Below, piece after piece: positions 1,089-16,022 of a stretch of DNA of 16,022 nucleotides. This DNA is from a virus (taxonomy: Duplodnaviria; Heunggongvirae; Uroviricota; Caudoviricetes). The number at the start of each line of letters is the position of its first letter. The stretch's first letter is position 1. Where the stretch lies: the IMG/VR virus record IMGVR_UViG_2526164666_000036, positions 1 to 16,022 of that record; one strand, 5' to 3'. The notes beneath the pieces are model-generated. The model searched no databases and was not told where the DNA came from. It saw only the letters and a program-made list of their open reading frames with translations. The translations under genes and the position numbers were made by a program.

Positions 1089-1271
1089 GAAACTCGTAGA
1101 GCAAAAGTGTTGTTACACTAACTTCGTCACAGGGTTATCCTGCAATACTCAAAATACACAATATTTACAAAACTAATAGTATACAAGGCGATCTTTAAGA
1201 TTTTGTTATAAATTATTGCCTTTCTCCTCTTTCCATGAGCTTTCTGGATAGCCACAGAATTCCGGGTACAG

Positions 1272-1296
1272 AAAAACCCGCTCAGCGGCGGGTTTT
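1272..1296 (-). terminator. Rho-independent terminator (bidirectional hairpin, stronger on minus strand), candidate tR'
   Basis: Stem CCCGC / GCGGG (1277-1281 / 1288-1292) flanked by A5 on one side and T4 on the other; lies about 50 nt downstream of the predicted late promoter. Confidence 0.5.
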
Positions 1297-1345
1297 GCTA
1301 CTTTGGCATCACGTACAAAATCGGCAAAATATCAGATTTGCATGA

Positions 1346-1374
1346 AATATATGCCTTTTAATCTACTTTTGCAA
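1346..1374 (-). promoter_or_regulatory. PR'-like sigma70 late promoter just downstream of the Q-like gene
   Basis: On the minus strand: TTGCAA (1374-1369), 17-nt spacer, TATATT (1351-1346); starts 5 nt after the Q-like stop codon. Confidence 0.5.
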
Positions 1375-1378
1375 TACT

Positions 1379-2047: not shown

Positions 2048-2403
2048 GCGCACTCCAGTTCTGTGATTTTTATCCCCAGCCGCCCACCAGAAACGAGCTG
2101 ACCGCGCACAATATTGATTTCATCAAACTGCTCGTCGTCTATGAGAAGTCCGGCATGCGTCAGCGCATCCAGTGGTGCTTTCAGGATATTGTCCAGGTCA
2201 CGACGACGTTTATCTGGTGGCTCTGCAATAATCTTTATCGCCAGCCGTCCGGACAGGTTTAATTTCAACCGCTGCTGGCGAACAATTAGTGCCACATCAC
2301 GGCGATAACGCTCACCGACTTTTGATACAAAATATGTGTTGCCACGACGTCGCCAGTAAGTATTCACCGTCGGCGGATAAGGCAAAACAAACTCTATACG
2401 CAT
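2044..2403 (-). CDS. rusA: Holliday junction resolvase RusA (crossover junction endodeoxyribonuclease)
   Basis: 119 aa; RusA-like layout including RRRDLDN and GGRL motifs; AAGAGG SD 6 nt upstream of ATG. Confidence 0.85.
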   Translation of the reverse strand: MRIEFVLPYPPTVNTYWRRRGNTYFVSKVGERYRRDVALIVRQQRLKLNLSGRLAIKIIAEPPDKRRRDLDNILKAPLDALTHAGLLIDDEQFDEINIVRGQLVSGGRLGIKITELECA

Positions 2404-2415
2404 CAGTAACCTCTT

Positions 2416-3465
2416 TTACCCGAGCACGCCGGTTGCAAAGGCGTGATCAAGAAAACGAAAAATTAAATCAACCTGGGAACCATGCTTTTCTTCGAACGCC
2501 AGCGGATCCGCATGAAGTTCGTTGTGATGTTCCCGGCACAACGGTAGCGTGAAAATATCGTGGGCCTTTGTTCCCATCCCTCCCTGACCGTGACCAATCA
2601 GGTGATGGGGATCGTCGGCTGGCTGACCACAACACGCACACGGCTGTGTCTTCACCCAGCGCGTATATTTCTCATTTACCCAACGGCGACGTTTAGGTCG
2701 CCTCATGAAAGATTCCGGAGACTCCGGATCAACGGTAACGCTGACCACTGTTTTTTCCTGTAGCGTGGTTTGTTGCTGGTGGACGTGAAGTGGCAGCGCA
2801 ATATTTTTTGTGCGCTGCTTCAGTATGCTGATGGCTGTCTGTTCTCCCGGTACGATGTCACTCTCACGGTATACGGAGCGGATTTTTTCCACCGGTAATC
2901 CCAGCGAACGACGCGCTACTGCCTCAGGTAGTGCATCCACCACCTGATTGCAGGCCGCCCACCAGGATAATTCGGCCAGCGATAACTCCCTCTCCTGCGT
3001 ACCGCTTATTGCGTGACGGATGACGTCAATCATCCAGGCAACCAGATTCTGCTGAGCAAGTTGATCGAGTGATTCTGATGTCTGGTCGCGCAGCTGGTTG
3101 TCACAGTGCCAGCACAACACCATCGCGCCGGCACCGTAACGGTGAATGACTGTTTCGCTGTGATGATAATCGCCGTGTAGCCACTGGCAGGATTTCACGT
3201 GACGTAATAACCAGTCAGACAGTGCACCAGCGCCACCCGCAGCACGGATCACCCGCTCATCGCTGAAAAATGGCAGTAGTGATTTATCTTCCGCCAGCGG
3301 CTGGTGAACGGCAGGTACAACCCCGGACGGCAGAGCTCGCATGCTTTTTGGTTCCGGCTCCACCAGTATTCTGCCGTTATGGAATGCTGACATTGATTCA
3401 CGGCCTGGCTTAACGATAACCAGACCGAGTTCCGGTACCAGAACAGGTCGAAGTAATACCCGCAC
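2416..3465 (-). CDS. DUF968 family prophage protein (YdfU-like) with C-terminal HNH-like Cys/His motif, 349 aa
   Basis: GTG start at 3465 preceded by GGAGG; C-terminus CACCG...DPHHLIGHG...LCREHHNELH resembles a His-Me finger. Length and position (between rusA and hokD) match Qin ydfU as I recall it. Confidence 0.7.
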   Translation of the reverse strand: MRVLLRPVLVPELGLVIVKPGRESMSAFHNGRILVEPEPKSMRALPSGVVPAVHQPLAEDKSLLPFFSDERVIRAAGGAGALSDWLLRHVKSCQWLHGDYHHSETVIHRYGAGAMVLCWHCDNQLRDQTSESLDQLAQQNLVAWMIDVIRHAISGTQERELSLAELSWWAACNQVVDALPEAVARRSLGLPVEKIRSVYRESDIVPGEQTAISILKQRTKNIALPLHVHQQQTTLQEKTVVSVTVDPESPESFMRRPKRRRWVNEKYTRWVKTQPCACCGQPADDPHHLIGHGQGGMGTKAHDIFTLPLCREHHNELHADPLAFEEKHGSQVDLIFRFLDHAFATGVLG

Positions 3466-3466
3466 A

Positions 3467-3745
3467 TTACCTCCAGATCCGTTGCTGGAATGTGCGGGAC
3501 GGACGCGGTGGCCGTTCGGAGTAAGGGAGCCTGACGGAGATTATCCAGTGACGGTAGTCGAGGCTAAGGGCTTTTTTAACCTCGCATCCGCGCCTGCGGT
3601 AACACTGAATGAGCCATTCGGCCTGTTCTTCAGTGCATGGGGGATGCTGGTACCAGTCAGATTTGAATGCGTGAAAACACCGTCCGCGCCTGCTGGCAAA
3701 GACGGCAGAATCATCAGAATTGTATAATTTGGTATCGTGCGCCAT
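3467..3745 (-). CDS. Hypothetical Cys/His-rich small protein, 92 aa (position of rem in Qin)
   Basis: First in-frame ATG at 3745 (MAHDTKLY...); the track's TTG start at 3826 lies inside a terminator U-tract. Stop TAA sits inside the SD-start spacer of the DUF968 gene. SD is weak. Confidence 0.45.
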   Translation of the reverse strand: MAHDTKLYNSDDSAVFASRRGRCFHAFKSDWYQHPPCTEEQAEWLIQCYRRRGCEVKKALSLDYRHWIISVRLPYSERPPRPSRTFQQRIWR

Positions 3746-3813
3746 CGGTTGTCTCTGCTGGCGCAGCAGGTGCCAGTTGTTCAGGCTGGCGTGCGAATTG
3801 TAAACCAGAATGC

Positions 3814-3844
3814 CAGGAAAAAACAAAACCCGCCGAAGCGGGTT
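3814..3844 (-). terminator. Rho-independent terminator downstream of hokD
   Basis: On the minus strand: AACCCGC-UUCG-GCGGGUU hairpin (UUCG tetraloop) followed by UUGUUUUUU. Confidence 0.6.
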
Positions 3845-3912
3845 AAGTGCGGGTGCGTTGAGGATGCCTGATTCATCAGAGGTGGCGAGGGATTTCTCCC
3901 TCGCCGGGTCTC

Positions 3913-4068
3913 TTACTCCTCAGGTTCGTAAGCTGTGAAGACAGCGACCTCCGTCTGGCCGGTTCGGATTCGTACCTCGCAGAGGTCTTTCCTCGTTACC
4001 AGTGCCGTCACTATGACGGTTAAACAGATGACGATCAGGGCGATTAACATCGCCTTTTGCTGCTTCAT
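3913..4068 (-). CDS. hokD: Hok-family type I toxin HokD (RelF), 51 aa
   Basis: Translation MKQQKAMLIALIVICLTVIVTALVTRKDLCEVRIRTGQTEVAVFTAYEPEE matches HokD as I recall it; AGGAG 9 nt upstream of ATG at 4068. The track ORF carries a 19-codon in-frame upstream extension. Confidence 0.9.
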   Translation of the reverse strand: MKQQKAMLIALIVICLTVIVTALVTRKDLCEVRIRTGQTEVAVFTAYEPEE

Positions 4069-4244
4069 AGCCTGCTTCTCCTTGCCTTTCGGCACGTAAG
4101 AGGCTAACCTACATGTGCAAGTCATAGATATGGCCTCAGATTAATGTTAAGCGTCTTGCCGGACGCGTAATGTTAACTGGGGCTTTTCTCTATCTGCCTT
4201 TTGGTGTTCATGCCTGAGACAGATAGCCTCAAGCACCCGCAGCA

Positions 4245-4273
4245 ATTCTACTTAACTTCCCTTTTCTCGCAAA
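4245..4273 (-). promoter_or_regulatory. Candidate sigma70 promoter for the hokD transcript
   Basis: On the minus strand: TTTGCG (4273-4268), 17-nt spacer, TAGAAT (4250-4245); would give a ~170-nt leader before hokD. Confidence 0.3.
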
Positions 4274-4359
4274 TCGTTTTTATCCCCAGCGGCAAATCGA
4301 ATACACCACCAGCGCCACCGCCATCGCAATTCCTACCGTTGTGAATGCTTCAGGCCAGG

Positions 4360-5289
4360 TCATCGATTCACCTCCTGCTCAATATTTTTAAGGTCATTTT
4401 CCGCATACAGTATTGCTGTCCTGGCTGCTCGTAACCGGGCTTTGGCATTTTTCTCTTCACGTTCAAGTTTTGCCACAGCTTCACGAAGAGCATCCCGCTT
4501 TGCATAGAGTGATTTAATCTCAGACACTATGTTTTCACCGTTTCTCGCACGGTCGAGAACAAGCTCGAACGGATCTAAAGCCAATCCGCATCGGTTACAG
4601 GTAATCGTACGATTCACTTCTGAAATTGTTGTACGGATATGCTGACAGCATTTTTGCTCGCCGCTTTTTCTGTCGGTTATCACAACGTTGAGGAGTCCTT
4701 CCTCCTCTGATTTTGGCTGTACCAGGGTGATAACATTGTCGACTTCATTTTTCATCAGTTCCCCCCCCTGCGGCGGTTCCGGTAGCGGCATCCAGTGAGT
4801 TGCCTGCTCAATACCATTACCCGGCTTAATCGTTGCATCTCCGCGCCGGAATGTGCTTCCTGTATAGCGTGCGGAGCATATTAGCGGTTCAACCAGAGAG
4901 CTATCGAAATTCACCGAAATAAGCACGTTCTGGTTCTTTTCAGGCATCCGCTCACTACAGCTTATCCAGCCATTCTTAATGCCACGATCCTGACTCTGAA
5001 GCATGGTGGCGCGGTGACACCAGATAATCCAGCCAAGCGCCATATCCCATGCCATGTATTCGCTATCGCCATTTTTTGCCCTGCGACGATCTACAGATTC
5101 CCCGAAACGCTTCTCCATAAATAATTCATAGGCTGCCCGTTCATCCGATACTGCTTCCAGTGACGCCAGTGCGATACGAAACACATTGGCAAGCAGGCTG
5201 TCTGAAGATTGGATATCGTGCGCCGGGTCGCTCAGGAAACCAGTGATGAATGATTTAATCTCCGCGTTTTCTCTGGTAATAGTGGTCAT
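4360..5289 (-). CDS. Phage protein with DUF551-like motif, C-terminal zinc ribbon and coiled coil, 309 aa
   Basis: ATG at 5289 preceded by AAGGAAAG; ATHWMPLPEPP motif resembles DUF551; CCQH...CNRCG then a heptad-like charged C-terminus (AKLEREEKNAKARLRAA). The track start at 5379 is a longer upstream extension. Confidence 0.7.
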   Translation of the reverse strand: MTTITRENAEIKSFITGFLSDPAHDIQSSDSLLANVFRIALASLEAVSDERAAYELFMEKRFGESVDRRRAKNGDSEYMAWDMALGWIIWCHRATMLQSQDRGIKNGWISCSERMPEKNQNVLISVNFDSSLVEPLICSARYTGSTFRRGDATIKPGNGIEQATHWMPLPEPPQGGELMKNEVDNVITLVQPKSEEEGLLNVVITDRKSGEQKCCQHIRTTISEVNRTITCNRCGLALDPFELVLDRARNGENIVSEIKSLYAKRDALREAVAKLEREEKNAKARLRAARTAILYAENDLKNIEQEVNR

Positions 5290-5290
5290 A

Positions 5291-5509
5291 TCAGCTTTCC
5301 TTATATGGGTTGATTTTGTTGTGCAGTGTGTTGAACGACGCCCATACCACGTCGTTATACAATTCAATAACTGGCTCAATTATTTTCCCGATTGCCCAGA
5401 CAAAAATTAGAGGGGATATCGGTATCATTAACACGATAAACAGAATGAGAAACAGAAATTCTGTTGTTCTACTCTTTCGTGGATATTTTTTTCTGAATAA
5501 TGTGACCAT
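5291..5509 (-). CDS. Possible small membrane protein, 72 aa
   Basis: AT-rich ORF with one hydrophobic segment (FLFLILFIVLMIPISPLIFVWAIG); its TGA overlaps the ATG of the downstream gene (ATGA). No convincing SD, so it may be non-coding spacer. Confidence 0.3.
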   Translation of the reverse strand: MVTLFRKKYPRKSRTTEFLFLILFIVLMIPISPLIFVWAIGKIIEPVIELYNDVVWASFNTLHNKINPYKES

Positions 5510-5636
5510 TCATTACCGCCCTTTCGGGCGGCCTCCTGATGTTTTGAGGGTGCAGGAATCCCTCCGGTTAAGGATTTAATAAAAATCACTTCTGATTTAA
5601 ATTTTCAGTGTTTTGTTGCCAGGTGATTTATCGCCT

Positions 5637-5948
5637 TTACGCTTCAGCCTTATTTCTCAGCCATACACAAACAGGACCATCTTCAGTGTCATGAATGGAA
5701 CCAATGAACCAGCCATCGCCCTCTGGTCGTTCCGGTTCCCATGCTGAAATATCAGGGCCATCTGCGTCCAGGTTAAAATCATCTTCATCCATAGTGCAGA
5801 TAGTCCACTGAAGATTATTTGCCTCCATCCACGCGTTAAATTCCTCTGTGGAAATATATTCACGACCTGCGCAAAACTTTTCATACTCAGGATGTGTCCA
5901 GCAGCCATATTCATCACGTACTACTGGTATTTCTTTAATTTCATTCAT
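5637..5948 (-). CDS. Hypothetical acidic protein, 103 aa
   Basis: ATG at 5948 preceded by GGGAGAA; start overlaps the upstream gene's stop by 8 nt. Confidence 0.55.
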   Translation of the reverse strand: MNEIKEIPVVRDEYGCWTHPEYEKFCAGREYISTEEFNAWMEANNLQWTICTMDEDDFNLDADGPDISAWEPERPEGDGWFIGSIHDTEDGPVCVWLRNKAEA

Positions 5949-6195
5949 TTCTGTTCTCCCACGTTTTCAGACTTTCACCACAGAACGGACAAAATGAAAC
6001 CCGCACTGGTGATTTAGAAAATTCACCGGAACGCAACATCACCAAATCAGGGCCGCGAGTTAAACTCTCATTCCAGATTTTGTATATCAGCAGACCTTTT
6101 CGCGTCGTGTATTCAGCATCATGCTCAAGGGATTTTGCCAGTGCCGTACACGGTTCTATCTTGTTGCCATAAACCTGGCATTTTGATTCATTCAC
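5941..6195 (-). CDS. Hypothetical protein with Cys pairs (possible zinc ribbon), 84 aa
   Basis: GTG start at 6195 preceded by AGGAGA; overlaps neighbours at both ends; contains KCQ...C and CPFCG. Confidence 0.5.
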   Translation of the reverse strand: MNESKCQVYGNKIEPCTALAKSLEHDAEYTTRKGLLIYKIWNESLTRGPDLVMLRSGEFSKSPVRVSFCPFCGESLKTWENRNE

Positions 6196-6469
6196 TGGTT
6201 TCTTTCTCCTGTCTGAACATCATGATCATCAGGCCATCTTTTGTTGCTACCCTGACTGTTGTTCCTGGCTCTATGCTGCCAAGGTCAAATGCGTCATAAA
6301 ATTCATTCAACGCTTTCTGGTGTCTCTCCTGTTTGCGTCGCTTTTCCCACTGCTTCAGAAAAACAGAGGTCACCCACTTCCCCGCGCTGAACATGATGTA
6401 AAACCAACCAAGCAGGGCCAACCCCGTGTTGAGGGCTGTATCAATCGTTATTGTTGTGTCGATATTCAC
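6188..6469 (-). CDS. Hypothetical single-pass membrane protein, 93 aa
   Basis: GTG start at 6469 overlapping the upstream stop (GTGA), preceded by AGGAGA; hydrophobic segment GLALLGWFYIMFSAG. Confidence 0.5.
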   Translation of the reverse strand: MNIDTTITIDTALNTGLALLGWFYIMFSAGKWVTSVFLKQWEKRRKQERHQKALNEFYDAFDLGSIEPGTTVRVATKDGLMIMMFRQEKETSE

Positions 6470-6762
6470 TGTGTCTTCTCCTGGAAAATAACTGCATGCC
6501 CCAGCTTCTCCGCCAGTGCCAGTTCCGCCTTAGCGCCTGCTGACCGCTGCCAGCCTTTCAGCATGTAAATCGCATCCACACAACGAATCATTGCCATGCA
6601 AATATCCATGTAGTGTGGCTGTGTCAGCCCGTCCGGAAGTACTGCCGGGGTTAAGACGGTATGCCCTTCCCGTTTCAGTTCCTCTTCCGCCTTGTGAAAC
6701 GCCTCACGGTTGAAATTTTCATATCCCGTCATTGGACCGGCAATATAAACTCTCACCCTCAC
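6466..6762 (-). CDS. DUF4406-like protein (nucleoside deoxyribosyltransferase-like fold), ~98 aa
   Basis: VYIAGPMTG...LTPAV...LKGWQRSAGAKAELALA pattern; GTG at 6762 overlaps the upstream stop (GTGA). The track's longer start at 6831 would overlap the upstream gene by 72 nt. Confidence 0.55.
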   Translation of the reverse strand: MRVRVYIAGPMTGYENFNREAFHKAEEELKREGHTVLTPAVLPDGLTQPHYMDICMAMIRCVDAIYMLKGWQRSAGAKAELALAEKLGHAVIFQEKTQ

Positions 6763-7151
6763 TCCATCACCTCCTGAAAGTTTCCCCGATAGAACGCCAG
6801 CACACGCTGCATAACTTCGCTCTGGCGGCACTCACGACAAATTATGTTCTGCCGTCTGTTGTAACGACGTATTTCTCCGTCAGGTAACTTTCGAATCAGT
6901 GTCGGGTCAGCAGCCTTCTCCGGTGTCTTACGCCATACGCGATACGCCTGCTCTGATGGAAATACCCCGCAACCAGAGAGCCAGACATCACCACTGGCCG
7001 CAAGCGCACCAGATAAACGACGAATAGCGGTCTTACTGACACCCGTTTTATCTGCCAGTTGTCGAAAAGTTTCTCGTCCGCTCAGGCGCACGAATTCCAC
7101 AATGCGCGCCTTCACTTCTTCCCGCTCTTCTGGTGTAAATTCTTTTGCCAT
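6759..7151 (-). CDS. Hypothetical HTH-containing phage protein, ~130 aa
   Basis: ATG at 7151 preceded by GGAGG 5 nt upstream (the track start at 7166 is TTG); helix-turn-helix-like stretch TFRQLADKTGVSKTAIRRL. Confidence 0.55.
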   Translation of the reverse strand: MAKEFTPEEREEVKARIVEFVRLSGRETFRQLADKTGVSKTAIRRLSGALAASGDVWLSGCGVFPSEQAYRVWRKTPEKAADPTLIRKLPDGEIRRYNRRQNIICRECRQSEVMQRVLAFYRGNFQEVME

Positions 7152-7166
7152 AAGCGCCTCCGGCAA

Positions 7167-7937
7167 TCACTTTTCCGATACAACACGGCGGGAAGAATCA
7201 GTAATCTGTCGAACAATATCCCGGTGCTTGTTCAGCTCCCGCAGCGCGGCGCAGACTCGCTCCCACTTCTGAACATCACTTTTCGCCCTGCGCAGCGCCA
7301 GGTTTGCCCTGCGAAGGGACGGAAAAATCAGCTCATCTGCTTGCGTTTCGGTAAACGATGGCAACGGCTGCACAATGTCCGCCACAGTTTCTGTTTTAAT
7401 TTCTTCCTGTGTTGCGGCTTCCCGGACTGGTAACGCAGCACCTGCTGGCTGAGGAAAGGCCTTACCATCACTTTCCGTTACCAGCGCGGCTTTCGGCTCT
7501 GCTGGTAAATTATCGCCCGGCATGCAGTAACGAAATTTACCGTTCTGATTAACGCGTGCCAGCCGCCCCGTTGCGGTTACCACCGCCAGCGTGGAAGCAA
7601 CCTTGCGAGTACTGACACCGAACTTACCCGCCAGTTCCTCACACGTTTTAGCCCCATCCTGACCGATAAACTCAATCATCATGTCTGCGGTAACTTTTTG
7701 TTCGACCTCCCCGGTCAGCATATCCTGTGCTTCAGATTTTACTGGCCGCTCTTCGGTTACCCGGGATTCACCTTCGCCAGCCAGAAACCAGGTGTGACCC
7801 GTTTTATCAACAACGCCATTTTTTTTGAGTTCCCACAGTTCGTTGAGAACTTCTTCACGGCTGATATCAAGCCGCGCCGCCAGTTCAACAGAATTGGCTT
7901 TACCCATCGCTTTCAGTGCATGCAATACGGTTTCCAT
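7167..7937 (-). CDS. Hypothetical protein with two winged-helix-like repeats, 256 aa
   Basis: ATG at 7937 preceded by GGAGGA 7 nt upstream; two similar segments ([24 protein letters not shown] and [24 protein letters not shown]). Confidence 0.6.
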
Positions 7938-7966
7938 TAAAACTTCCTCCGGATAAAAATTACTTC

Positions 7967-8707
7967 TCAGTTCCTGTGCTGGCTGACGTTCGGACGCCAG
8001 CTCTCCCAGTTAAACGTCACCCAGCGACCACCGTTCATGGACATGCGGTCCATCACCCGCTCGCCGAGAAGTGTATTCATCGCTGCATGGTTAAGATTTG
8101 TCAGCATCCCCACACTGAGTAACGATGCCGTTCTGCGGTCAACAATCTGATTCAGCGTGACCTGCTCATTACGCGTATCCCGTTGCATGCCAATTTCATC
8201 CAGTACCAGCAGGTCAACGCCACACAATCCCTGCAAAAATTTTTCGCCCGAGTTTTTGTTGTCGTAGCTGCCATGTAACGCCAGCATCACATCCGCCACT
8301 GTTATCACAATCACACTGCGACCTTTCGCCAGAAGGTGGTTGCCAATAGCCGCCGCCAGGTGGTTTTTTCCTGTGCCAGGCCTGCCACTGAAAACAAAAT
8401 TCGTACAGCCGCCTTCCAGCTCTGCCGCAATGGATTTCGCCTGACTCAGGGCATGGCGCTGACCATCGTTCTGCACCCGGTAGTTACCGAACGTACACTT
8501 CCGGTGAAGCGGCTGGATACCGGAGCGGTTAATGATTTTTTCAACCCGCGTCTGATGATTCAGACGATTAACCTCCTCGCTTCGCTTACGCCCTTCAGCA
8601 AGCTGCCATTCCCGCCACTCCGCCACCGTACGGTACGGAGGGATTGCATCCTGCGGCACAAATCTGCTGACTCTTGCCAGAACACCACCTGACGTAATGT
8701 TTTTCAT
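7967..8707 (-). CDS. DnaC-like replicative helicase loader (YdaV-like / phage P analogue), 246 aa
   Basis: Walker [16 protein letters not shown] and Walker B LLVLDEIG; immediately downstream of the O-like initiator gene. Confidence 0.85.
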
Positions 8708-8713
8708 GGTGCG

Positions 8714-9682
8714 CTACCCCCTGAAACCCGGCGGAATTTCGGTATCCGGTTCAGAAATATGATTCACGCAACGCTGCGCGGGCGAACGCCCCAGGCGGAT
8801 AACCAGTTCATCCCATTTTTCCCGGAGTTTTGCCGGACTCATGATGTTTTTTACCCAGAACGAATCCCGTTGAACACGCCCAAACATTTCACAAATCTGT
8901 CGGTGACTACGTCCATCCAGCATACGCATCATGCGCACATCATTCGCCCAGGTCGTCCAGTTAGGCTCTCTGGGGCGTGATACCTCCCCATCATCACTGG
9001 CGGCCTGTTCATACAACGCAACAACCCGTCCCCAGATCCACTGTGCACACGTCAAATCCTCCCGGGTTCCCCACTGTCGCTTTGGTACATTCCAGGTATG
9101 CGCATCCGGGTGTTTCTCCAGAAATCGCTCGACCGGTGATGCTTGTTTTTCGTCCGGCAGTGAAACGTCCGGACAAGAAGATCTTTTATCTGACGGATCA
9201 GGTTTTAATACTGACGGATCGGGGTCAATCATCGCCCCCCTAATCGGCAGTTTTTTATCAACAGTTGATCCATCAAAATTTGACGGGTCAACCGTTGAGG
9301 GGTCAATATTTGACGGGTCAACTGTTAACGGGTCATTTTTTGCCGGGCTAATTTTTCTTTTCGGTTTATATGACTCACGCGCCGCCGCCGCAGCTGCTTC
9401 GAGTTTTTCCACATTAAGCCGATAGATATTGCTTACATTACGCCCACCGACCTTACGCTCTTCCTTCGTCAGCCAGCCCTCTTTCGCCAGTTCTGCAATA
9501 GCCGATTTCACTGTGGATTCACTTCTTGCACCGATCTGACGCCGGATAGTTTCAATGGCAGGCCATGACACGCCCTCGTCATTGCTGTAGTCTGCAAGAC
9601 GGGCCATAACCGCCACCCTGGATAAGATCATGCCGGTGAAGGCGCACCCTTCCCAGACAAGACCATGAAGCTTGCTGCTCAT
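8714..9682 (-). CDS. Replication initiator O-like protein (YdaU-like) with N-terminal HTH
   Basis: ATG at 9682 (alternative GTG at 9697); central linker DPLTVDPSNIDPSTVDPSNFDGSTVD is encoded by the DNA iterons, as with ori inside lambda O. Confidence 0.75.
   Translation of the reverse strand: MSSKLHGLVWEGCAFTGMILSRVAVMARLADYSNDEGVSWPAIETIRRQIGARSESTVKSAIAELAKEGWLTKEERKVGGRNVSNIYRLNVEKLEAAAAAARESYKPKRKISPAKNDPLTVDPSNIDPSTVDPSNFDGSTVDKKLPIRGAMIDPDPSVLKPDPSDKRSSCPDVSLPDEKQASPVERFLEKHPDAHTWNVPKRQWGTREDLTCAQWIWGRVVALYEQAASDDGEVSRPREPNWTTWANDVRMMRMLDGRSHRQICEMFGRVQRDSFWVKNIMSPAKLREKWDELVIRLGRSPAQRCVNHISEPDTEIPPGFRG
9190..9340. repeat. Iteron array: candidate prophage replication origin inside the O-like gene
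   Basis: Repeated GACGG(A/G)TC at 9192, 9213, 9281, 9311; palindromic cores TCAACAGTTGA (9257-9267) and TCAACCGTTGA (9287-9297); exact 13-bp repeat TTTGACGGGTCAA 30 bp apart; followed by an AT-rich stretch at 9334-9370. Confidence 0.6.
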
Positions 9683-9704
9683 AAAACCCCCGAACACCGT
9701 GCTT

Positions 9705-10130
9705 TTAGTGCATCACCACAGCATTCCCTGCCGGGCCGCCGCGATTCATCTGGTCATACAAAACAACCGCTGACGCAACAAAATCATCGACATCCTTCAC
9801 CAGCCGATCCCTCCGTTCGACGATCTCACGGTAATATTCAGAACTGTGGCTGCGCATACGGGCCACCAGCAAAGGCGGCATCGCCTTTTCGATCGCCGGT
9901 AACAGAGCCTGCATTTTTTCAACAGCATCAGGGGTGTCTTTCTCTACCCAGCGGAAAATTTTCTGGGTATTGCGAGCCAGGGCTTCCGGATGGCTGTCGT
10001 CATACAGTTCTGGGAACGTCATACCCAACTCAAAATAAGCCTGGGTTATTCCAGCTGCTGGAACTTTTTCGCCATCAGGACGCGCCCAGGCATTCATCGC
10101 CATGCGGATGTGTTCATGCTTGATTTTCAT
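9705..10130 (-). CDS. YdaT-like protein (CII-position regulator), 141 aa
   Basis: Begins MKIKHEHI; AGGAG SD; directly downstream of, and overlapping by 17 nt, the Cro-like gene, as in Rac ydaS-ydaT. Confidence 0.65.
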   Translation of the reverse strand: MKIKHEHIRMAMNAWARPDGEKVPAAGITQAYFELGMTFPELYDDSHPEALARNTQKIFRWVEKDTPDAVEKMQALLPAIEKAMPPLLVARMRSHSSEYYREIVERRDRLVKDVDDFVASAVVLYDQMNRGGPAGNAVVMH

Positions 10131-10395
10131 GAATCAAGCTCCTAGAAAGTGGTTGTGTTAACGTTTTGGTATCTTCCAGCTCGGGCCAAATATTCATCCA
10201 ATCAAAAGGCCTTAGTTGCTGACGTGTAACTTCACCATTACTGGCTCGCTCAATAAGGACACATAACGATGCCCCTAACACTTGACCTTTACTCAATGCC
10301 TTTCTTAGATAACCGATGCTGGTACCACACTCGCATGCAAACATACGCTGTTCATCTGACGAAAGAGAATTGAGAAATATTCTTAATTCTTCCAT
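10114..10395 (-). CDS. Cro-like HTH regulator (YdaS/DicC family), 93 aa
   Basis: HTH-like FACECGTSIGYLRKALS and IERASNGEV...LRP pattern; AAGGAG SD 5 nt upstream of ATG; divergent from the repressor gene. Confidence 0.7.
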   Translation of the reverse strand: MEELRIFLNSLSSDEQRMFACECGTSIGYLRKALSKGQVLGASLCVLIERASNGEVTRQQLRPFDWMNIWPELEDTKTLTQPLSRSLIHENQA

Positions 10396-10495
10396 AGCTA
10401 CTCCTTAGTAAACACAGCAAAGAATACCCACAGGTAAACAAAAGTCAATACCCACAGGTTGTTTACCTTGCGGTAATCGCATCTATTATTTACCT
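10396..10495. promoter_or_regulatory. Divergent immunity promoter/operator region
   Basis: Direct repeats AATACCCACAGGT at 10423-10435 and 10447-10459, plus TTTACCTATGGA at the repressor ATG. Minus strand carries TTGACT-16-TATTCT for the Cro-like gene. On the plus strand TATTAT (10484-10489) sits 6 nt before the repressor ATG with no SD, implying a leaderless mRNA. Confidence 0.55.
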
Positions 10496-10915
10496 ATGGA
10501 CAAATATGAATTTAGACGACAGCAACTCATCAAAATTCGTGATGAGAAATGCGATGGTAAAGCGGTTAACGTGGCCAGAAAGATCGGGCGCGAGCCTTCT
10601 TATGTATCAAGAATGTTGTACCCAGAGGGGAAAAAGGGAAAAAAACGGATCGCTGATGATATGGTGGAGATTATCGAAGAGTCCTTTGGGTTACCCCGGG
10701 GATGGATGGATGGTATCGTTTCATCATCAACGAACACAGCCTCCAGTTATGAAACAAGGGTTCTAACGCCACGACAACGTATTTTTTTAGATCTCTTAGA
10801 CGAACTGCCAGAAAGTGAAGCGGATAAATTATTAAAAACTCTTGAAGAGAAAAAACAGTATTACAATATGATCTACGAAGAAATCCGTAAAAAGAAAGCA
10901 CAAAACGCATCATAG
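10496..10915 (+). CDS. cI-type prophage repressor (DicA/RacR-like), 139 aa
   Basis: Divergent from the Cro-like gene; N-terminal HTH region; C-terminal LPESEADKLLKTLEEKK resembles the DicA C-terminus as I recall it. Confidence 0.75.
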   Translation: MDKYEFRRQQLIKIRDEKCDGKAVNVARKIGREPSYVSRMLYPEGKKGKKRIADDMVEIIEESFGLPRGWMDGIVSSSTNTASSYETRVLTPRQRIFLDLLDELPESEADKLLKTLEEKKQYYNMIYEEIRKKKAQNAS

Positions 10916-10955
10916 CTCACCAAACAACTAGTCACCAGTTAAGACACCGCAAAAA

Positions 10956-10997
10956 TTTACCCATGGGTATTTACTTTTTAAATACCTATGGGTATCC
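10956..10997. promoter_or_regulatory. Two palindromic operator-like sites at the early operon promoter
   Basis: TTTACCCATGGGTATTT (10956-10972, perfect palindrome TACCCATGGGTA) and AATACCTATGGGTATCC (10981-10997), same half-site as the divergent region; overlap candidate -35/-10 hexamers. Confidence 0.5.
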
Positions 10998-11180
10998 TTC
11001 TTTTCATACCAACCCACCCCGCCCCACAGAATGCAGGGCAATACTTCGAGTTACCAGGCAGTGGTCAGGGGTTAAGTAGCCAGCCCGAGGCGTAAGAACA
11101 TGACGGCAGGGTTCAACTTTAATAACTATGCAGCAGGTTTTTGTTCCGCTACCCCGGCGTTAAGGGGAAATGAGGTCAGC

Positions 11181-11333
11181 ATGGATACTATCGATCTTGG
11201 CAACAACGAATCTCTGGTATGTGGCGTGTTTCCCAATCAGGACGGCACGTTTACCGCGATGACGTATACCAGAAGCAAAACGTTTAAAACGGAAGCTGGC
11301 GCGCGTCGCTGGTTAGCAAGAAACTCTGACTGA
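11181..11333 (+). CDS. Small protein YdfA/YdaF-like, 50 aa
   Basis: ATG at 11181 with GAGG 5 nt upstream; MDTIDLGNNESLV... resembles Qin YdfA as I recall it; first gene after the repressor. Confidence 0.55.
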   Translation: MDTIDLGNNESLVCGVFPNQDGTFTAMTYTRSKTFKTEAGARRWLARNSD

Positions 11334-11344
11334 TGAGGTTGACG

Positions 11345-11983
11345 ATGGAATTTAAAGATTTACCTCCTTCAATCCAGGAGATTGCAGCACACACACTTCG
11401 TCATCGTCTGAACGAACTTGAATTGGAATCGGTAACGAAAAAAGACACTGATAATATGGCTCGTAATGTGCGCGATGCGTTTACCGGATTGTATTTCTGT
11501 GCGTCTATAAATAAACACGACTCAGAGAGTGTGGCAAATAAAATTGCAGAAACGACAGCGCAAAACATCAATACGAAACCAACGGAAGAAGAAATTGATC
11601 AGTTTGCTCATGATGCTGGTTTAAAAAACAAGAAAGAAAAATCGCCATATGCGGGGAACATGTTTGTTTATGACAATCTCATCAGAATTCGTGGCGAAAT
11701 TCCGGCGGAATACCTGGCAAGAGTCCATCAGGCATTGCTTAAAAATTTGGAAACAGAATTATTTGATGGCAACACTAACGGTTTCTTCATGGTATCAGGC
11801 CTTGAGAAAGACTGGGATGCAGAAAAACGCTGGAATGTTGCTACATGGTTATTCAGTAACAGAGCCGCTGCACTGGAAGCTTCGGCATGTATTTGCGGCC
11901 TGTTCTTAACAGACCACAAATATAATCTGGATGTGTACAGTTATATTTACGCTGAACACGGTCCACTCTGGATTGACTGGTAA
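11345..11983 (+). CDS. Hypothetical protein of unknown function, 212 aa
   Basis: ATG at 11345 with GAGG 7 nt upstream (alternative ATG at 11333 overlapping the upstream stop); no motif I recognise. Confidence 0.6.
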   Translation: MEFKDLPPSIQEIAAHTLRHRLNELELESVTKKDTDNMARNVRDAFTGLYFCASINKHDSESVANKIAETTAQNINTKPTEEEIDQFAHDAGLKNKKEKSPYAGNMFVYDNLIRIRGEIPAEYLARVHQALLKNLETELFDGNTNGFFMVSGLEKDWDAEKRWNVATWLFSNRAAALEASACICGLFLTDHKYNLDVYSYIYAEHGPLWIDW

Positions 11984-12531
11984 TTATAAGGAAACACCAG
12001 CAGGGCCGCGGCGACCAACAGAACGATTAAAATCAATAATGCCATTATAAAGGACATTATTTAATTTATCGTCGAATGCTGATTCTGTGAGCCTCAACTC
12101 TGAATGAGTTTTTAATAACCCTGATTGCCTGAGTTGATTTACCAGGCATTCAATCTGTTTTTCAATAAGCGGATTTCTTTTTTGTTTGGCATTTTATCCT
12201 CCATTGAGGTTCTGGGTTAAAAATGGAGACCAACACGCTGTCACGTGTGGTCGTGCGCCGGACACGGATAAGAATCCGGTACTGACAGTTTACTGAAAGG
12301 ATATTTCCCTGAAAAGTCAGTGCATAACGCGAAAGCGTACGGCGAAGCTCTTTCCCTTAGAAGGCTTGTCGTTAGATTTCTTCGAACGTGCGCTTCCGGT
12401 TGTGGCACTCCGCGAAATGGCGCGGCGGTAAGTATGGCGGGGTTATTCCTTCCCCAGTTGAGGACACCGGGTTGTCAGGTTGACCATACGCTTAAGTGAC
12501 AACCCCGCTACAACGCCCTCTGTTATCAATA

Positions 12532-12589
12532 TTCTGGTGACATTTGGCGGTATCAGTTTTACTCCGTGACTGCTCTGCCGCCCTTTTTT
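12532..12589 (+). ncRNA. dicF: DicF small regulatory RNA
   Basis: TTCTGGTGACATTTGGCGGTATCAGTTTTACTCCGTGACTGCTCTGCCGCCCTTTTTT matches DicF as I recall it, apart from one or two changes near the 5' end; ends in its own GC-hairpin plus U-tract terminator; lies just upstream of dicB. Confidence 0.85.
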
Positions 12590-12759
12590 AAAAGTGAATT
12601 TTGTGATGCGGTGAATGCGGCTCAGCGCACGCGGAACAGTTAAAACCAAAAACAGTGTTATGGGTGGATTCTCTGTATCCGGCGTTAATTGTTAACTGGT
12701 TAACGTCACCTGGAGGCACCAGGCACCGCATCACAAAATTCATTGTTGAGGACGCGATA

Positions 12760-12948
12760 ATGGAAAAGTTATCATGTAATGCCAGCACGTCTGAACTTCG
12801 TTTCGAAATTGGCGTTATCACTGGAGACAAAACATTTATTGAAGACGCCATTAAGCAGAGAAAACTCGAGCAGGACCTGTTAAATGAAGTATGCATTCCT
12901 TCAATGCTGGCTCGTCTGGACCTGCTGCAAAAAGGATATAAACAATGA
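12760..12948 (+). CDS. dicB: Cell division inhibitor DicB, 62 aa
   Basis: ATG at 12760 with GAGGA upstream; shares FEIGV, EDAI, SMLARL blocks with K-12 DicB; directly downstream of DicF. Confidence 0.8.
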   Translation: MEKLSCNASTSELRFEIGVITGDKTFIEDAIKQRKLEQDLLNEVCIPSMLARLDLLQKGYKQ

Positions 12949-13136
12949 ATACAACATTTGCACTCGTTCTGACAGTTTATCTTGTTTCCGGCGAATCTCT
13001 TGAGCTGGTGACTGGCTTATACGGTTCAATGAAAGAATGCATGGCTGCAGCAGCAGAACAAAAAATTCCCGGTAACTGTTATCCGGTAGATAAAACTACT
13101 CACACTAATAATAACGAAATACCGGCAGGACTTTAA
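12945..13136 (+). CDS. ydfD: YdfD-like small membrane/lysis protein, 63 aa
   Basis: ATG overlaps the dicB stop (ATGA); AAGGA SD; hydrophobic N-terminus TTFALVLTVYLVSG; same position as ydfD in Qin. Confidence 0.65.
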   Translation: MNTTFALVLTVYLVSGESLELVTGLYGSMKECMAAAAEQKIPGNCYPVDKTTHTNNNEIPAGL

Positions 13137-13229
13137 AACAGCACCGTAATTAATATCCGGTTTCATTTTTATATGCCAGCAATGGCAGGGATTTGTTCAC
13201 CCTTAAATCTGTAATGAGGTTAAAACAAA

Positions 13230-15701
13230 ATGAGTAAAGTCTTTATTTGCGCCGCCATTCCGGACGAACAGGCAATAAAAGAAGAGGGCGCAGTTGCTGT
13301 AGCCACTGCCATTGAAGCCGGTGATGAACGCCGCGCCCGTGCCAAATTTACCTGGCAATTCCTGGAGCAATATCCTGCTGCTCAGGACTGCGCTTATAAA
13401 TTTCTTGTCTGCGAAGATAAACCTGGCATGCCCCGCCCTGCTATCGACTCCTGGGATACCGAATATATGCAGGAAAACCGCTGGGATGAGGAATCCGCTT
13501 CCTTTATTCCGGTCGAACCAGAATCCGATCCTATTAACGTCAATTTTGACAAGCTGTCCCTTGAAGTACAGAACGCGGTCCTGGTTAAGTTCGGTACATG
13601 TGAAAACATCACCGTTGATATGGCGATTGACGCGCAGGAATTACTGCAAGAAGACGTGGCTACCTTTGACGGACATATCGTTGAAGCACTGATGAAAACG
13701 CCTGAAATTAACGCTATGTATCCGGAACGCAAACTGTTCGCTATCGGATGGGTTAAACACAAATGTAAGCCGGGTACCAAATGGCCCGAAATTCAGGCTG
13801 AATTACGTAACTGGAAAAAACGGCAGGACGCAGAGCGCAAAGAGACTGGAAAATACACGTCTGTTGTTGATCTTGCCCGCGCCAAAGCCAACCGACAGCA
13901 CACTGAAAACCCAGCAGAAAAAATCCCTCCTGTAACTGCCGCCATTCATCGCGAATACAAGCAGACATGGAAAACCCTGGACAGGGAGCTGGCCTACTAT
14001 CTCTGGCCTGGTGATGCGGATGCCGGAAACATTGACGGCAGCATCCTTCGCTGGGCTAAAAATGAAGTTATCGCCAGAGATCGCGAAGACTGGAAGCGCA
14101 TCTCCGCATCAATGCGCAAACAACCTGATGCGCTTCGCTACAGCCGCCAGACTATTTTTGGCCTTGTCCGTGAACGTCCGATCGACATTCACAAAGACCC
14201 TGTGGCACTGAACAAATACATTACTGAATACCTGACTACAAAGGGCGTGTTTGAAGATGAAGGAAGAAATCAGAGCGCAACTGATACTCTCTCGTCGCCA
14301 GTACCAGAAACTGATGCAGTGGAAACGGCAATTCAGGACAACGAAAAAACCGAATGCAAAGTGGAAGTCGAATCATCTGTAGAGCGTGAGGGGCCGTTCT
14401 ACTTCCTCTTCAGCGACAAGGATGGCGAAAAATACGGTCGTGCAAACAAACTTTCTGGTCTGAATAAGGCGCTGGCTGCAGGGGCTACTGAAATCACGAA
14501 AGAAGAATATTTTGCCCGCAAAAACGGTACATACTCAGGTTCACAACAAAATACTGGTGCATCTGACACGATCGCACAACCGGAGCCGGTAAAAGTTACC
14601 GCTGACGAAGTAAACAAAATTATGCAGGCAGCCAATATCAGCCAGCCTGACGCCGATAAGTTGCTTGCTGTATCACGTGGTGAATTTGTTGCAGGGATTA
14701 GCGACCCGAATGATCCGAAATGGGTGAAGGAGATTGAAACCCGCGATTCAGTGAATCAGAACCAGCAAGAAACGGAACAGAACGACCAGAAAGCGGAACA
14801 AAACAGCCCAAATGCGTTACAAAACGAGCCAGAAACGAAACAATCCGAACCAGTAGTGCAACAGGAACCGGAAAAAGTCTGCACCGCCTGCGGTCAGAGC
14901 GGTGGCGGCAACTGCCCCGATTGTGGCGCTGTCATGGGCAACGCAACATACCAGGAAACATTCGATGAAGAGAATCAGGTTGAAGCTCAGGAGAATGATC
15001 CGGAGGAAATGGAAGGCGCTGAACATCCACACAAGGAGAACACTGGCGGCAATCAGCATCACGCCAGCGATAGTGAAACTGGCGAGGCGGCAGATCCCTT
15101 AATTAAGGTGAATGGTCATCACAATCTCACATCCACCAGCAGAGCGGGGATTCATCTGATGATCGACATTGAAACCATGGGAAAAAATCCCAATGCCGCG
15201 ATTATCTCAATAGGCGCAATATTTTTCGATCCACAAACCGGAGATATGGGACCGGAATTTAGCAAGACCATCGATCTGGATACTGCTGGCGGAGTTATTG
15301 ATCGTGACGTCATTAAATGGTGGCTGAAGCAATCACGTGAAGCGCAGTCTGCCATTCTGACCGATGAAATCCCGTTAGATGATGCACTACTGCAATTGCG
15401 GGAATTTATCGCCGAAAACTCCGGTGAATTTTTTGTTCAGGTCTGGGGAAATGGAGCCAACTTCGACAACGTGATTTTACGCCGTTCATACGAACGGCAG
15501 GGGATCCCCTGCCCCTGGCACTACCACAACGATCGCGATGTACGCACAATCGTTGAGCTAGGGAAAGCCATAGACTTCGATGCCAGAACAGCTATCCCAT
15601 TCGAAGGTGAGCGCCACAATGCACTTGATGACGCCCGTTACCAGGCAAAATACGTTTCAGCTATCTGGCAAAAACTGATCCCGAGTCAGGCTGATTTTTA
15701 A
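13230..15701 (+). CDS. Large prophage protein (YdfE-like N-terminus) with internal zinc ribbon and C-terminal DEDDh (DnaQ-like) 3'-5' exonuclease domain, 823 aa
   Basis: C-terminal motifs MIDIETMG (Exo I), GNGANFDNVIL (Exo II), HNALDDARYQA (Exo III); CTACG...CPDCG ribbon around 14878-14930; Q/E-rich low-complexity linker around 14755-14875. Confidence 0.8.
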   Translation: MSKVFICAAIPDEQAIKEEGAVAVATAIEAGDERRARAKFTWQFLEQYPAAQDCAYKFLVCEDKPGMPRPAIDSWDTEYMQENRWDEESASFIPVEPESDPINVNFDKLSLEVQNAVLVKFGTCENITVDMAIDAQELLQEDVATFDGHIVEALMKTPEINAMYPERKLFAIGWVKHKCKPGTKWPEIQAELRNWKKRQDAERKETGKYTSVVDLARAKANRQHTENPAEKIPPVTAAIHREYKQTWKTLDRELAYYLWPGDADAGNIDGSILRWAKNEVIARDREDWKRISASMRKQPDALRYSRQTIFGLVRERPIDIHKDPVALNKYITEYLTTKGVFEDEGRNQSATDTLSSPVPETDAVETAIQDNEKTECKVEVESSVEREGPFYFLFSDKDGEKYGRANKLSGLNKALAAGATEITKEEYFARKNGTYSGSQQNTGASDTIAQPEPVKVTADEVNKIMQAANISQPDADKLLAVSRGEFVAGISDPNDPKWVKEIETRDSVNQNQQETEQNDQKAEQNSPNALQNEPETKQSEPVVQQEPEKVCTACGQSGGGNCPDCGAVMGNATYQETFDEENQVEAQENDPEEMEGAEHPHKENTGGNQHHASDSETGEAADPLIKVNGHHNLTSTSRAGIHLMIDIETMGKNPNAAIISIGAIFFDPQTGDMGPEFSKTIDLDTAGGVIDRDVIKWWLKQSREAQSAILTDEIPLDDALLQLREFIAENSGEFFVQVWGNGANFDNVILRRSYERQGIPCPWHYHNDRDVRTIVELGKAIDFDARTAIPFEGERHNALDDARYQAKYVSAIWQKLIPSQADF

Positions 15702-15770
15702 TGTTCAACCATCGCCGGTTGTGACTGGTATTCTGCAACCGGCCCTCATCTGATGTAAGAGATAAAAGCG

Positions 15771-16022
15771 ATGAGCGAAGTAATCATGATTGTCTCTCCC
15801 GGTAAATGGGTATCCGAAGAGCAGTTAATTGCGCTGAAAGGAATAAAAAAAGGTACGTTAAAAAAGGCCCGGGAAAAATCGTTTATGGAAGGAAGGGAAT
15901 ATAAGCATGTCGCTCATGACGGTATGCCATGGGATAACAGTCCATGCTTTTACAACCTGGAAGAAATTGATCGCTGGATTGAGCGCCAGGCATCTGCAAG
16001 ACCAAGACGTCATCTTGCTTGA
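15771..16022 (+). CDS. Excisionase-like small DNA-binding protein, 83 aa
   Basis: Small basic protein at the prophage end downstream of the recombination-region gene; size, position and YNLEEIDRW-type C-terminus fit Xis/AlpA-like proteins. Assignment is positional. Confidence 0.5.
   Translation: MSEVIMIVSPGKWVSEEQLIALKGIKKGTLKKAREKSFMEGREYKHVAHDGMPWDNSPCFYNLEEIDRWIERQASARPRRHLA

Follow-up and report, generated by a model that had tools for sequence, protein, structure and literature searches.

A structured, modular 5' leader as the probable processing cassette of the DicF precursor

What does the sequence in front of the small RNA (sRNA) DicF contribute to its release from a longer transcript, and does it do anything else? 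We addressed this question at positions 12060-12531 of a Caudoviricetes genome fragment (IMG/VR record IMGVR_UViG_2526164666_000036, positions 1 to 16,022; this whole stretch of 16,022 nucleotides (nt) is called the window hereafter), in the interval that directly precedes the DicF gene. An initial annotation, made from the sequence alone, had described this interval as untranslated and rich in hairpins. DicF is among the oldest known bacterial sRNAs and affects cell division, metabolism and the virulence of enterohaemorrhagic Escherichia coli; matches to its locus are present in 4573 of 5426 complete E. coli genomes, the median being 2 copies and the maximum 10. Accounts of its production have so far gone no further than "RNase III then RNase E". 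The analyses reported below indicate that 12253-12531 is probably a non-coding, modular, structured 5' leader of the DicF precursor that works as a processing cassette. One of its modules, called module B here, also occurs far outside DicF loci. The coordinates of all elements are collected in table 1.

The DicF Leader and Its Counterpart in E. coli K-12

The interval 12060-12531 is composed of three parts, namely the 5' part of a minus-strand gene (12060-12192), a lineage-specific spacer (12193-12252) and the DicF leader itself (12253-12531). DicF was recognized on the plus strand by the Rfam model RF00039, with 77 bits for a gathering score of 48; the same model had no match inside 12060-12531, and the start of DicF according to the K-12 annotation lies one base before the Rfam match. 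As initially noted, there is no plus-strand open reading frame (ORF) of 60 codons or more in the interval, although narrowly so, the plus-strand ORFs being 31, 36, 59 (GTG start, 12320-12499) and 31 amino acids (aa) long. The broader description of about 470 nt as untranslated holds for the leader and fails for the first 133 nt, which overlap the minus-strand gene.

The leader aligns with the sequences found directly 5' of dicF in the K-12 prophage Qin and in phage Tritos, with a mean column identity of 91%. Homology with K-12 extends over about 280 nt at roughly 91-93% identity and sets in at about 12252-12253; phage records match the leader at 90-93%, and all megablast matches begin at query position 353, which is position 12252 of the window. 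In K-12, ydfC ends 340 nt before dicF and the gap is unannotated. The leader is homologous to this untranslated gap, and the initial proposal that the K-12 interval is coding (ydfB/ydfC) was therefore mistaken for 12253-12531. Besides orthologous, untranslated sequence, the window and the K-12 Qin dicBF precursor share the order leader, DicF, STnc100-like spacer and dicB (in the window, DicF, dicB and ydfD-like genes follow the leader) and, by inference, the cleavage sites. What differs between elements is the gene cargo upstream of 12253: in the window, DUF1391, phrog_2151 and a convergent minus-strand phrog_4274 gene replace ydfB/ydfC. The two sequences also differ by window-specific substitutions, among them a G.A mismatch in the duplex described below and, at position 12531, A for U as first base of DicF. 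A further change in the DicF copy concerns its last 5'-seed base at 12542 (GUGACA for GUGACG), which turns a U.G pair of the hairpin formed by the linker and the seed into U-A.

For K-12, Ragunathan et al. (2023, bioRxiv 10.1101/2023.04.14.536235), citing Faubladier et al. (1990), report that a 190-nt DicF species is lost without RNase III, that inactivation of RNase E leads to the loss of 53-nt DicF and the accumulation of the 190-nt species, and that primer extension found no internal promoter. The preprint also states that both species accumulate in stationary phase and that no transcript extending past dicF was detected on Northern blots. Because the leader shares about 91-93% identity with the K-12 spacer from which these RNase III and RNase E products were published, the initial reading of the interval as the processing substrate that releases DicF was right, and for 12253-12531 it is well supported. 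The locus and this role were thus already known. The novelty lies in an explicit candidate RNase III duplex, in a domain of about 115 nt supported by covariation and without Rfam match, and in the spread of this domain as a promoter-proximal, terminator-coupled cassette. As far as the published K-12 work was available to us, it describes the cleavage products and not the duplex, the four-way-junction fold or the occurrence beyond DicF loci; Faubladier and Bouché (1994) and the P1 genome paper may contain an earlier mention of part of the sequence similarity.

The leader is non-coding. When homologues were sorted by the length between conserved anchors modulo 3, all three frames were represented (39, 27, and 3 sequences), and the substitutions among them keep base pairs, not codons. 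The 59-aa ORF matched no Pfam or PHROG family. ARAGORN found no tRNA or tmRNA in 11900-12800, and a search of 11950-12760 with 4227 Rfam models (E-value up to 10) returned only DicF, the STnc100-like match downstream and an anti-hemB hit, which lies within the minus-strand gene and was discarded as chance level (E = 0.075).

Table 1. Elements of the DicF leader, of DicF and of the adjoining upstream sequence in the window
Element	Positions	Strand	Basis and remarks
Module A hairpins H1 (about 12257-12280) and H2 (12281-12321, with internal loops)	12253-12321	+	RNAalifold on 22 homologues, minimum free energy (MFE) folds, inverted repeat I1
Long irregular duplex: 5' strand 12322-12348, 3' strand 12380-12405, variable apical part 12349-12379	12322-12405	+	RNAalifold, MFE; candidate RNase III substrate
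Module B: four-way-junction domain with probable pseudoknot	12400-12513	+	RNAalifold, pair counts, covariance model R1 (about 115 nt)
P1	12400-12406/12507-12513	+	Covaries; closing pair C-G 23, U-A 5, U-G 4
P2	12410-12414/12421-12425	+	Almost invariant, so no covariation test
P3	12426-12429/12466-12469	+	Almost invariant, so no covariation test
P4, variable hairpin	12439-12442/12452-12455	+	39 distinct sequences, most fold as hairpin; pyrimidine-rich loop kept
P5 (9-bp stem of the initial annotation)	12470-12477/12497-12504	+	Covaries; five pairs with two-sided changes
Probable pseudoknot, GUAUGG/CCAUAC	12432-12437/12484-12489	+	One compensatory change (phage P1: GCAUGG/CCAUGC), two wobbles
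Linker-seed hairpin	12514-12549	+	-13.1 kcal/mol; in MFE and centroid structures; kept in all DicF-type homologues examined
DicF sRNA with intrinsic terminator and U-tract	12531-12589	+	53 nt by K-12 annotation; Rfam match 12532-12583
Lineage-specific spacer	12193-12252		GGAGG ribosome-binding site and promoter-like site of the minus-strand gene; not in K-12
69-aa phage gene, function not known	11984-12192	-	phrog_4274; WP_001133037 in the closest genomes; covers the first 133 nt of 12060-12531

Fold of the Leader and Proposed Order of Processing

Taken as a single sequence, the leader is barely more structured than expected by chance. When the region was dinucleotide-shuffled 1000 times, a perfect stem of at least 9 base pairs (bp) with a loop of 3-30 nt arose in 44 cases, and the folding z-score was -2.61 for 12194-12590 and -1.78 for 12253-12531. 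As this support is marginal, the case for structure rests on the homologues. They uphold the perfect 9-bp stem GGGTTGTCA/TGACAACCC of the initial annotation (12469-12477/12497-12505, 19-nt loop), which covaries; its coordinates were correct, and it ends 26 nt before the Rfam match to DicF. The two smaller hairpins fared less well. A GNRA hairpin placed at 12336-12347 corresponds to CGC-GAAA-GCG at 12328-12337, which is one strand of a long duplex in the consensus fold, and one placed at 12250-12270 is in fact CCGG...CCGG of module A (H1), with a non-GNRA loop. Module A shows no two-sided covariation because the homologue sequences are too alike.

The consensus fold of module B was obtained with RNAalifold from 33 representatives (less than 96% identical in pairwise comparisons), the pseudoknot being added by inspection. 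In this alignment, 96.9% of the cells of paired columns hold standard pairs, versus 26-55% when partners are slid by 1-3 columns, and two-sided changes affect nine pairs versus zero to three in the slid controls; none of 500 shuffles reached the observed pairing values. The comparative fold lies within 2 kcal/mol of the unconstrained MFE, pseudoknot not counted. Double changes in P5 keep the pairing (e.g., GGGUAACCA/UGGUUACCC in Izhakiella), and the P4 stem is found as GGGG/CCCC, CAGGUG/CACCUG, CCGGG/CCCGG, CAGGG/CCCUG or UGGGGC/GCUCCA. Covariance model R1 recovers the window with 172 bits as a single copy, and no Rfam family matched module B at an E-value up to 10. Conserved, covarying structure is therefore what the homologues display, in place of the decayed ydfC remnant without conserved structure that had been named as the outcome contrary to the initial reading. 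Four scans of the viral collection for variants of the pseudoknot loop strand gave, at the four positions targeted, zero, zero, two (uncompensated C-to-A singletons) and zero (one chance hit) real variants; the near-invariance of this loop indicates constraint and is no proof of pairing.

Two other roles for module B segments were tried and rejected. An alternative pairing of GCGGGG (12437-12442) with CCCCGC (12503-12508; I2) is not sustained by other lineages, in which changes on the P4 side are unmatched on the other strand. The GGCGGUA motif, considered as an anti-terminator that mimics the terminator 5' arm, is kept in phage P1 with an unrelated terminator. Independently of these pairings, the 9-mer GUUGAGGAC occurs both between P4 and P3 (12457-12465) and at the ribosome-binding site of dicB (12745-12753), and both copies show partial complementarity with the pyrimidine-rich loop of P4 (UUAUUCCUU).

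Upstream of module B, and sharing a strand with it, lies the long duplex. In an RNAalifold consensus built from 22 distinct E. coli-type leaders, 12323-12345 is paired with 12383-12405, and the MFE of 12318-12410 alone is -34.8 kcal/mol with a duplex of about 25 bp (22-27 bp). The duplex energy is -29.6 kcal/mol in the window versus -17.3 +/- 2.8 with shuffled upstream sequence, and -33.5 versus -21.2 +/- 3.0 in Erwinia. Within E. coli, changes in the duplex are one-sided only (C-G to U-G). Equivalent duplexes are formed by CACAACGAUGAGAGCAUUG with CAGUGCUCUCUUCGUUGUG in Erwinia and Izhakiella, by CAUAACAGGUAAGAGCAUUCC with GGAAUGCUCUUUCCGUUGUG in Trabulsiella and by GCAACGAUGAGGGCAUUU with AAGUGCUCUCAGCGUUGUG in phage cdtI; Citrobacter also has one with compensating sequence differences. 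Between lineages, such differences include AGCGCA/UGCGCU versus AGAGCA/UGCUCU. The published lengths of 190 and 53 nt differ by about 137 nt, and an RNase III end that far upstream of DicF would fall at about 12392-12396, within the duplex 3' strand. The 9-bp stem is therefore probably not the RNase III site: the calculated cut falls in the other, longer duplex, and that stem is P5 of a separate domain. In Erwinia tracheiphila (locus L172, about 4425-4520) and Izhakiella (locus L174, about 2270-2365), the apical part of the duplex carries an insert with two hairpins that have tRNA T-loop sequences (GGCAGG-UUCAAUU-CCUGCC and GUCCG-UUCAAUU-CGGAC); ARAGORN and Rfam identified no tRNA and no other family in this insert.

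The 3' strand of the duplex ends in GGUUGUGG, and the 5' strand of P1 is UUGUGGC. Positions 12400-12405 belong to both strands and therefore have two possible partners, CAUAAC upstream (CACAAC in other lineages) and RCAAC of P1 downstream, each of them conserved. This arrangement suggests that duplex and P1 may exchange a strand. Downstream of module B, the linker UGUUAUCA is predicted to pair with the DicF 5' seed UGGUGACA, and the four bases with which the terminator stem begins take part in the outer CGCC/GGCG pairs of this linker-seed hairpin. The DicF 5' end (12530/12531, CAAU↓AUUC, the arrow marking the cut), whose RNase E dependence is known from K-12, is located in its predicted 6-nt loop; this site presumably agrees with the RN↓WUU preference of RNase E. 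The fold suggests that the precursor may keep the DicF seed masked until RNase E cuts.

Combining these elements, we propose that the leader would be part of the transcript of an early-left (dicB-type) operon in a lambdoid prophage resembling Qin and that the 22-27-bp duplex would form during transcription. RNase III would cut this duplex, which would part the upstream mRNA from an RNA of about 190 nt carrying a 5'-monophosphate. The freed UUGUGG (12400-12405) could next pair with GCUACAA (12507-12513), closing P1 of module B. Directly behind P1, the seed-paired hairpin would offer CAAU↓AUUC in its loop to RNase E, whose cut would free the active 53-nt DicF, ending at its own intrinsic terminator.

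Module B as a Terminator-Coupled Cassette

By blastn against phage records, 12399-12522 moves as an independent unit. It is present without DicF in phages cdtI and Ayreon, in Stx2c-converting phages, in one Salmonella and one Actinobacillus phage, and in P1/P7, the P1 record labelling its neighbourhood "dicF-like region". A gapped-pattern scan of the viral collection retrieved at least 120 loci; a looser pattern, applied to one genome per species, gave 47 hits, 17 of which were confirmed by R1, the rest being chance matches. Confirmed hosts are Escherichia (coli, albertii, ruysiae), Shigella, Citrobacter, Trabulsiella, Serratia symbiotica, Erwinia tracheiphila and Izhakiella. The 17 also include four hits in metagenome-assembled or unclassified records (Veillonella, Collinsella, Bacillota, "Proteobacteria"), which have E. 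coli- or P1-type sequence and are probably contaminants. Conservation of the leader segment reaches further than that of the genes beside it, and mosaic breakpoints lie at its edges.

The coupling of module B to a downstream terminator is invariable. A script detected a stable hairpin followed by a U-tract downstream of module B in 124 of the 126 loci with enough sequence, and in the remaining two the terminator hairpin, seen by eye, was longer than the script window. The terminator hairpin differs by lineage (DicF, shortened or altered DicF-like, cdtI type, P1 type and others) with a constant module B, which is therefore the constant cassette and the downstream terminator hairpin or sRNA the variable cargo. 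Module B lies 25-60 nt upstream of this intrinsic terminator and follows an early promoter, at the head of a long operon. In cdtI, cI is succeeded by a PL-like promoter (TTGACA-17-TAATGT), a leader of about 280 nt, module B, the terminator and the early-left genes; Ayreon has the same order, with a promoter and a second terminator further down the operon annotated by its authors, as do an Stx2c phage and prophages of Erwinia, Izhakiella and Citrobacter. In phage P1, about 40 nt separate the C1-controlled Pban promoters from the start of module B, which there heads the operon with tRNA genes and ban. No N-like gene was found between the repressor and module B in cdtI, Ayreon, the Stx2c phage or the other elements examined. 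R1 detected one copy each in the window, a 21-kb prophage segment and the complete Ayreon genome, and a search for a second, PR-side copy found none; the P1 ban operon gave a 14-bit R1 hit, which overlaps an STnc100-like element.

Two observations concern the surroundings of the cassette in other elements. In distant homologues (L172, L174, L151, L167, L050), a Shine-Dalgarno sequence with its start codon (AGGAG-N8-AUGUUCUACCG...) lies within the terminator hairpin behind module B, so that translation initiation would compete with terminator formation. On the PR side, an IsrK and C4-antisense RNA pair is present in cdtI (L005, 40-228, minus strand), Ayreon (L178, 34882-35070, plus strand) and a Citrobacter prophage (L164, 1630-1815, minus strand). 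A structured RNA thus stands at the start of each early operon in these N-less phages, module B after PL and IsrK/C4 on the PR side.

Several points weigh against the leader being a processing cassette and nothing more, or against parts of its fold. The single-sequence fold of 12253-12531 is only weakly better than those of shuffled sequences. P2 and P3 never vary, which leaves their pairing untried by covariation, and against the single compensatory change and two wobbles of the pseudoknot stand two natural C-to-A variants that are uncompensated. The patterns used to retrieve homologues fixed CGGTAAG and AGGTTGACCAT, so that invariance at these motifs is inflated, partly by construction, and an energy search served to locate the duplex partners in several lineages, a partly circular procedure. 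The RNase III cut position would follow by arithmetic from a published length, and the enzyme dependence is that of K-12, not of the window strain. Near-invariant loops and junctions across genera are not obviously needed in a mere processing scaffold, and processing leaves unexplained why module B also stands upstream of non-DicF hairpins (cdtI type, P1). Moreover, ectopic 53-nt DicF is active, and module B is thus not needed for DicF action. Given its invariance and its non-DicF cargo, an additional function of module B is likely.

What this additional function may be is best weighed together with the readings that would replace processing altogether. Module B, with or without the duplex, could be a cis-acting RNA that sets read-through of the terminator next to it and of later ones, either by put-like processive antitermination through the nascent RNA or as a riboswitch-like attenuator, and so divides transcripts between making the sRNA and expressing toxic early-left genes (dicB, exonuclease, xis/int). 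This alternative, the main rival although in our view unlikely, fits the invariable position of module B between an early promoter and an intrinsic terminator 25-60 nt further on, at the head of a long operon, its place after PL in cdtI, Ayreon and Stx2c phages and in the Erwinia, Izhakiella and Citrobacter prophages and after Pban in P1, the lack of an N-like gene between repressor and module B in these elements, and the second terminator annotated in Ayreon. Its size of about 115 nt, multi-helix junction, pseudoknot and near-invariant loops are likewise typical of partner-binding RNAs, and since P1 is not lambdoid, any such partner would probably be a host factor. Module B thus offers the aptamer-like domain with covarying helices expected of a riboswitch or attenuator; the switching part is harder to find. 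The DicF-type linker hairpin overlaps the terminator, by 4 bp only, and not module B; in phage P1, the 3' strand of P5 could pair with the 5' arm of the terminator (by eye); and no terminator/antiterminator scheme, or antiterminator helix overlapping module B, common to all lineages was found. Also against this alternative are the single copy in each element, with none on the PR side, unlike putL/putR, the lack of sequence or architectural likeness to put, and the K-12 Northern blots, which showed no transcript past dicF.

The initial annotation had also considered that the interval might conceal another small RNA. Less probable still is that module B, which is part of the 190-nt species, is the working part of a separate, stable trans-acting RNA (the 5' product of about 137 nt or the whole 190-nt species) that binds a host or phage protein or pairs through its pyrimidine-rich P4 loop, the terminator hairpins merely sharing its transcript. 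Conservation of module B whatever follows it, the accumulation and stability of the 190-nt species in stationary phase in K-12, the P4 loop, which keeps a UCCUU/CUCC-like, anti-Shine-Dalgarno-like composition on a varying stem, and the repetition of GUUGAGGAC at the dicB ribosome-binding site would all suit such an RNA; yet module B has no promoter or 3' end of its own, no separate gene was found, we found no evidence for survival of a fragment of about 137 nt and no Rfam or literature record, and the P4 loop motif is short and degenerate. Finally, the interval might be a decaying ydfB/ydfC-type coding remnant or conceal a small-protein gene, with incidental hairpins, to which the 59-aa GTG ORF, several ORFs of 31-55 aa on both strands and the (pseudo)gene sequence that truly occupies the minus strand of the distal third lend some colour. 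We consider this very improbable: the K-12 counterpart of the leader lies past the ydfC stop and is non-coding, homologue indels fall in all three frames, no family matches, substitutions preserve pairs and not codons, and the segment is conserved over a wider range than its flanking genes, with mosaic breakpoints at its edges.

The processing cassette therefore remains the probable reading of 12253-12531, and it provides concrete elements to mutate (the duplex, the folded domain and the putative seed-masking hairpin) for the gating of DicF and the toxin DicB. If module B only aids processing, this would be a modest refinement of known biology. Its position before varied terminators in inducible phages (Stx2c, cdtI, Ayreon) and P1 nevertheless suggests a general cassette for early-operon control or sRNAs in N-less temperate phages, and module B is a candidate for a new Rfam RNA family. 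A bolder proposal, to which we give little credence at present, is that the duplex and module B form a new class of phage leader RNA gating the choice between stopping, with release of the cargo sRNA, and reading through into toxic early genes. If true, this class would be an N-independent functional analogue of put and nut, acting on host RNA polymerase or a host factor and widespread in N-less lambdoid prophages (including Stx2c phages) and P1, in which RNase III cleavage could be the switch, by freeing the P1 strand.

Neighbouring Features and Comparison with Known Systems

The first part of the interval, 12060-12192, is unrelated to the leader and is the antisense of a broken minus-strand gene, which converges on the dicB-type operon. 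The 69-aa protein is a full-length match to phrog_4274 (E = 1e-51), had no match in Pfam, and is annotated as a hypothetical protein by the Prokaryotic Genome Annotation Pipeline (PGAP) in the counterpart of 11984-12192 in the closest genomes (99.9% identical, 801 nt). The sole difference over these 801 nt is a run of six T at 12178-12183 where the closest genomes have seven; the lost T breaks the phrog_4274 frame in the window and shortens the protein to 17 aa. Among the matches listed, all 25 E. coli differ from the window within this 801-nt stretch (99.9% identity, 802 bases aligned), and RM9872, aligned directly, has seven T. The frameshift may be either a real pseudogene mutation or a sequencing error in a homopolymer. 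The promoter-like match of this gene in the adjoining spacer (12220-12191, minus strand) is weak, with 9 of 12 positions.

The same minus-strand region contains, in a different frame, an ORF of 36 aa with strongly hydrophobic sequence (MSFIMALLILIVLLVAAALLVF...; 11947-12057) that overlaps the end of a 216-aa plus-strand gene; it resembles a small membrane peptide or type I toxin but may be a frame artefact. Elsewhere in the prophage, a sok antitoxin RNA (RF01794, 115 bits; 4063-4238, minus strand) lies beside a hokD-type toxin gene. A full STnc100 match (RF02076; 812-1000, minus strand) sits a short distance downstream of the gene for antiterminator Q (about 1380-2048, minus strand), in the position of a late-promoter (PR') leader. 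Copies below the threshold (33-37 bits for a gathering score of 47) stand between DicF and dicB in the window (12597-12737, plus strand), K-12 and Tritos, and another is inside the P1 ban operon; outside the window they were located at L003 2933-3142, L002 2845-2985 and L004 3842-3961. All these STnc100-like copies share GGUGAAU...CACCNGGAGGCACCNGGCACC and a long closing helix.

Among known systems, the put RNAs of phage HK022 (putL/putR), which are processive antiterminators independent of proteins, resemble module B in being structured nascent RNAs of a lambdoid phage without N, with an early promoter upstream, terminators downstream and highly conserved unpaired nucleotides. However, put is about 70 nt long, with two stem-loops joined at a single junction nucleotide, and present in two copies (PL, PR), whereas module B is a four-way junction of about 115 nt with a pseudoknot and present in one copy. 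A blastn-short comparison with the HK022 immunity region gave only chance words of 8-11 nt (E-values of 1.2 or more). We thus rejected module B as a put RNA on architecture, sequence similarity and copy number. The put function, suppression of termination in cis without phage proteins, which is blocked by mutations in the zinc-binding domain of the RNA polymerase beta' subunit, is compatible with module B by position only. A lambda-type nut site was likewise rejected: CCCUGAAAAG at about 12306-12315 resembles half of boxB without a complementary 3' arm, the boxA-like GCUCUUUCCC at 12347-12356 is not conserved in K-12, and the window has no N-like ORF between the repressor and DicF.

The immunity RNAs C4 of P1/P7 (RF01695) and CI of P4 are likewise small regulatory RNAs that host RNases release from the 5' portion of an early phage transcript. 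They differ from the DicF leader, which has no Rfam match to C4, in being made by RNase P, in acting on their own operon and in their folds. A parallel in arrangement is the N leader of phage lambda, in which an RNase III-sensitive duplex lies in the untranslated leader of the PL operon and its cleavage alters the action of the downstream RNA; its RNase III hairpin was reportedly described by Kameyama, Court and colleagues in 1991. The DicF leader resembles it in its duplex, which would be sensitive to RNase III, in its untranslated place in a PL operon and in its lambdoid setting. The lambda leader controls the translation of N and adjoins nutL, whereas the leader described here, with neither N nor nut, has an sRNA precursor as its product.

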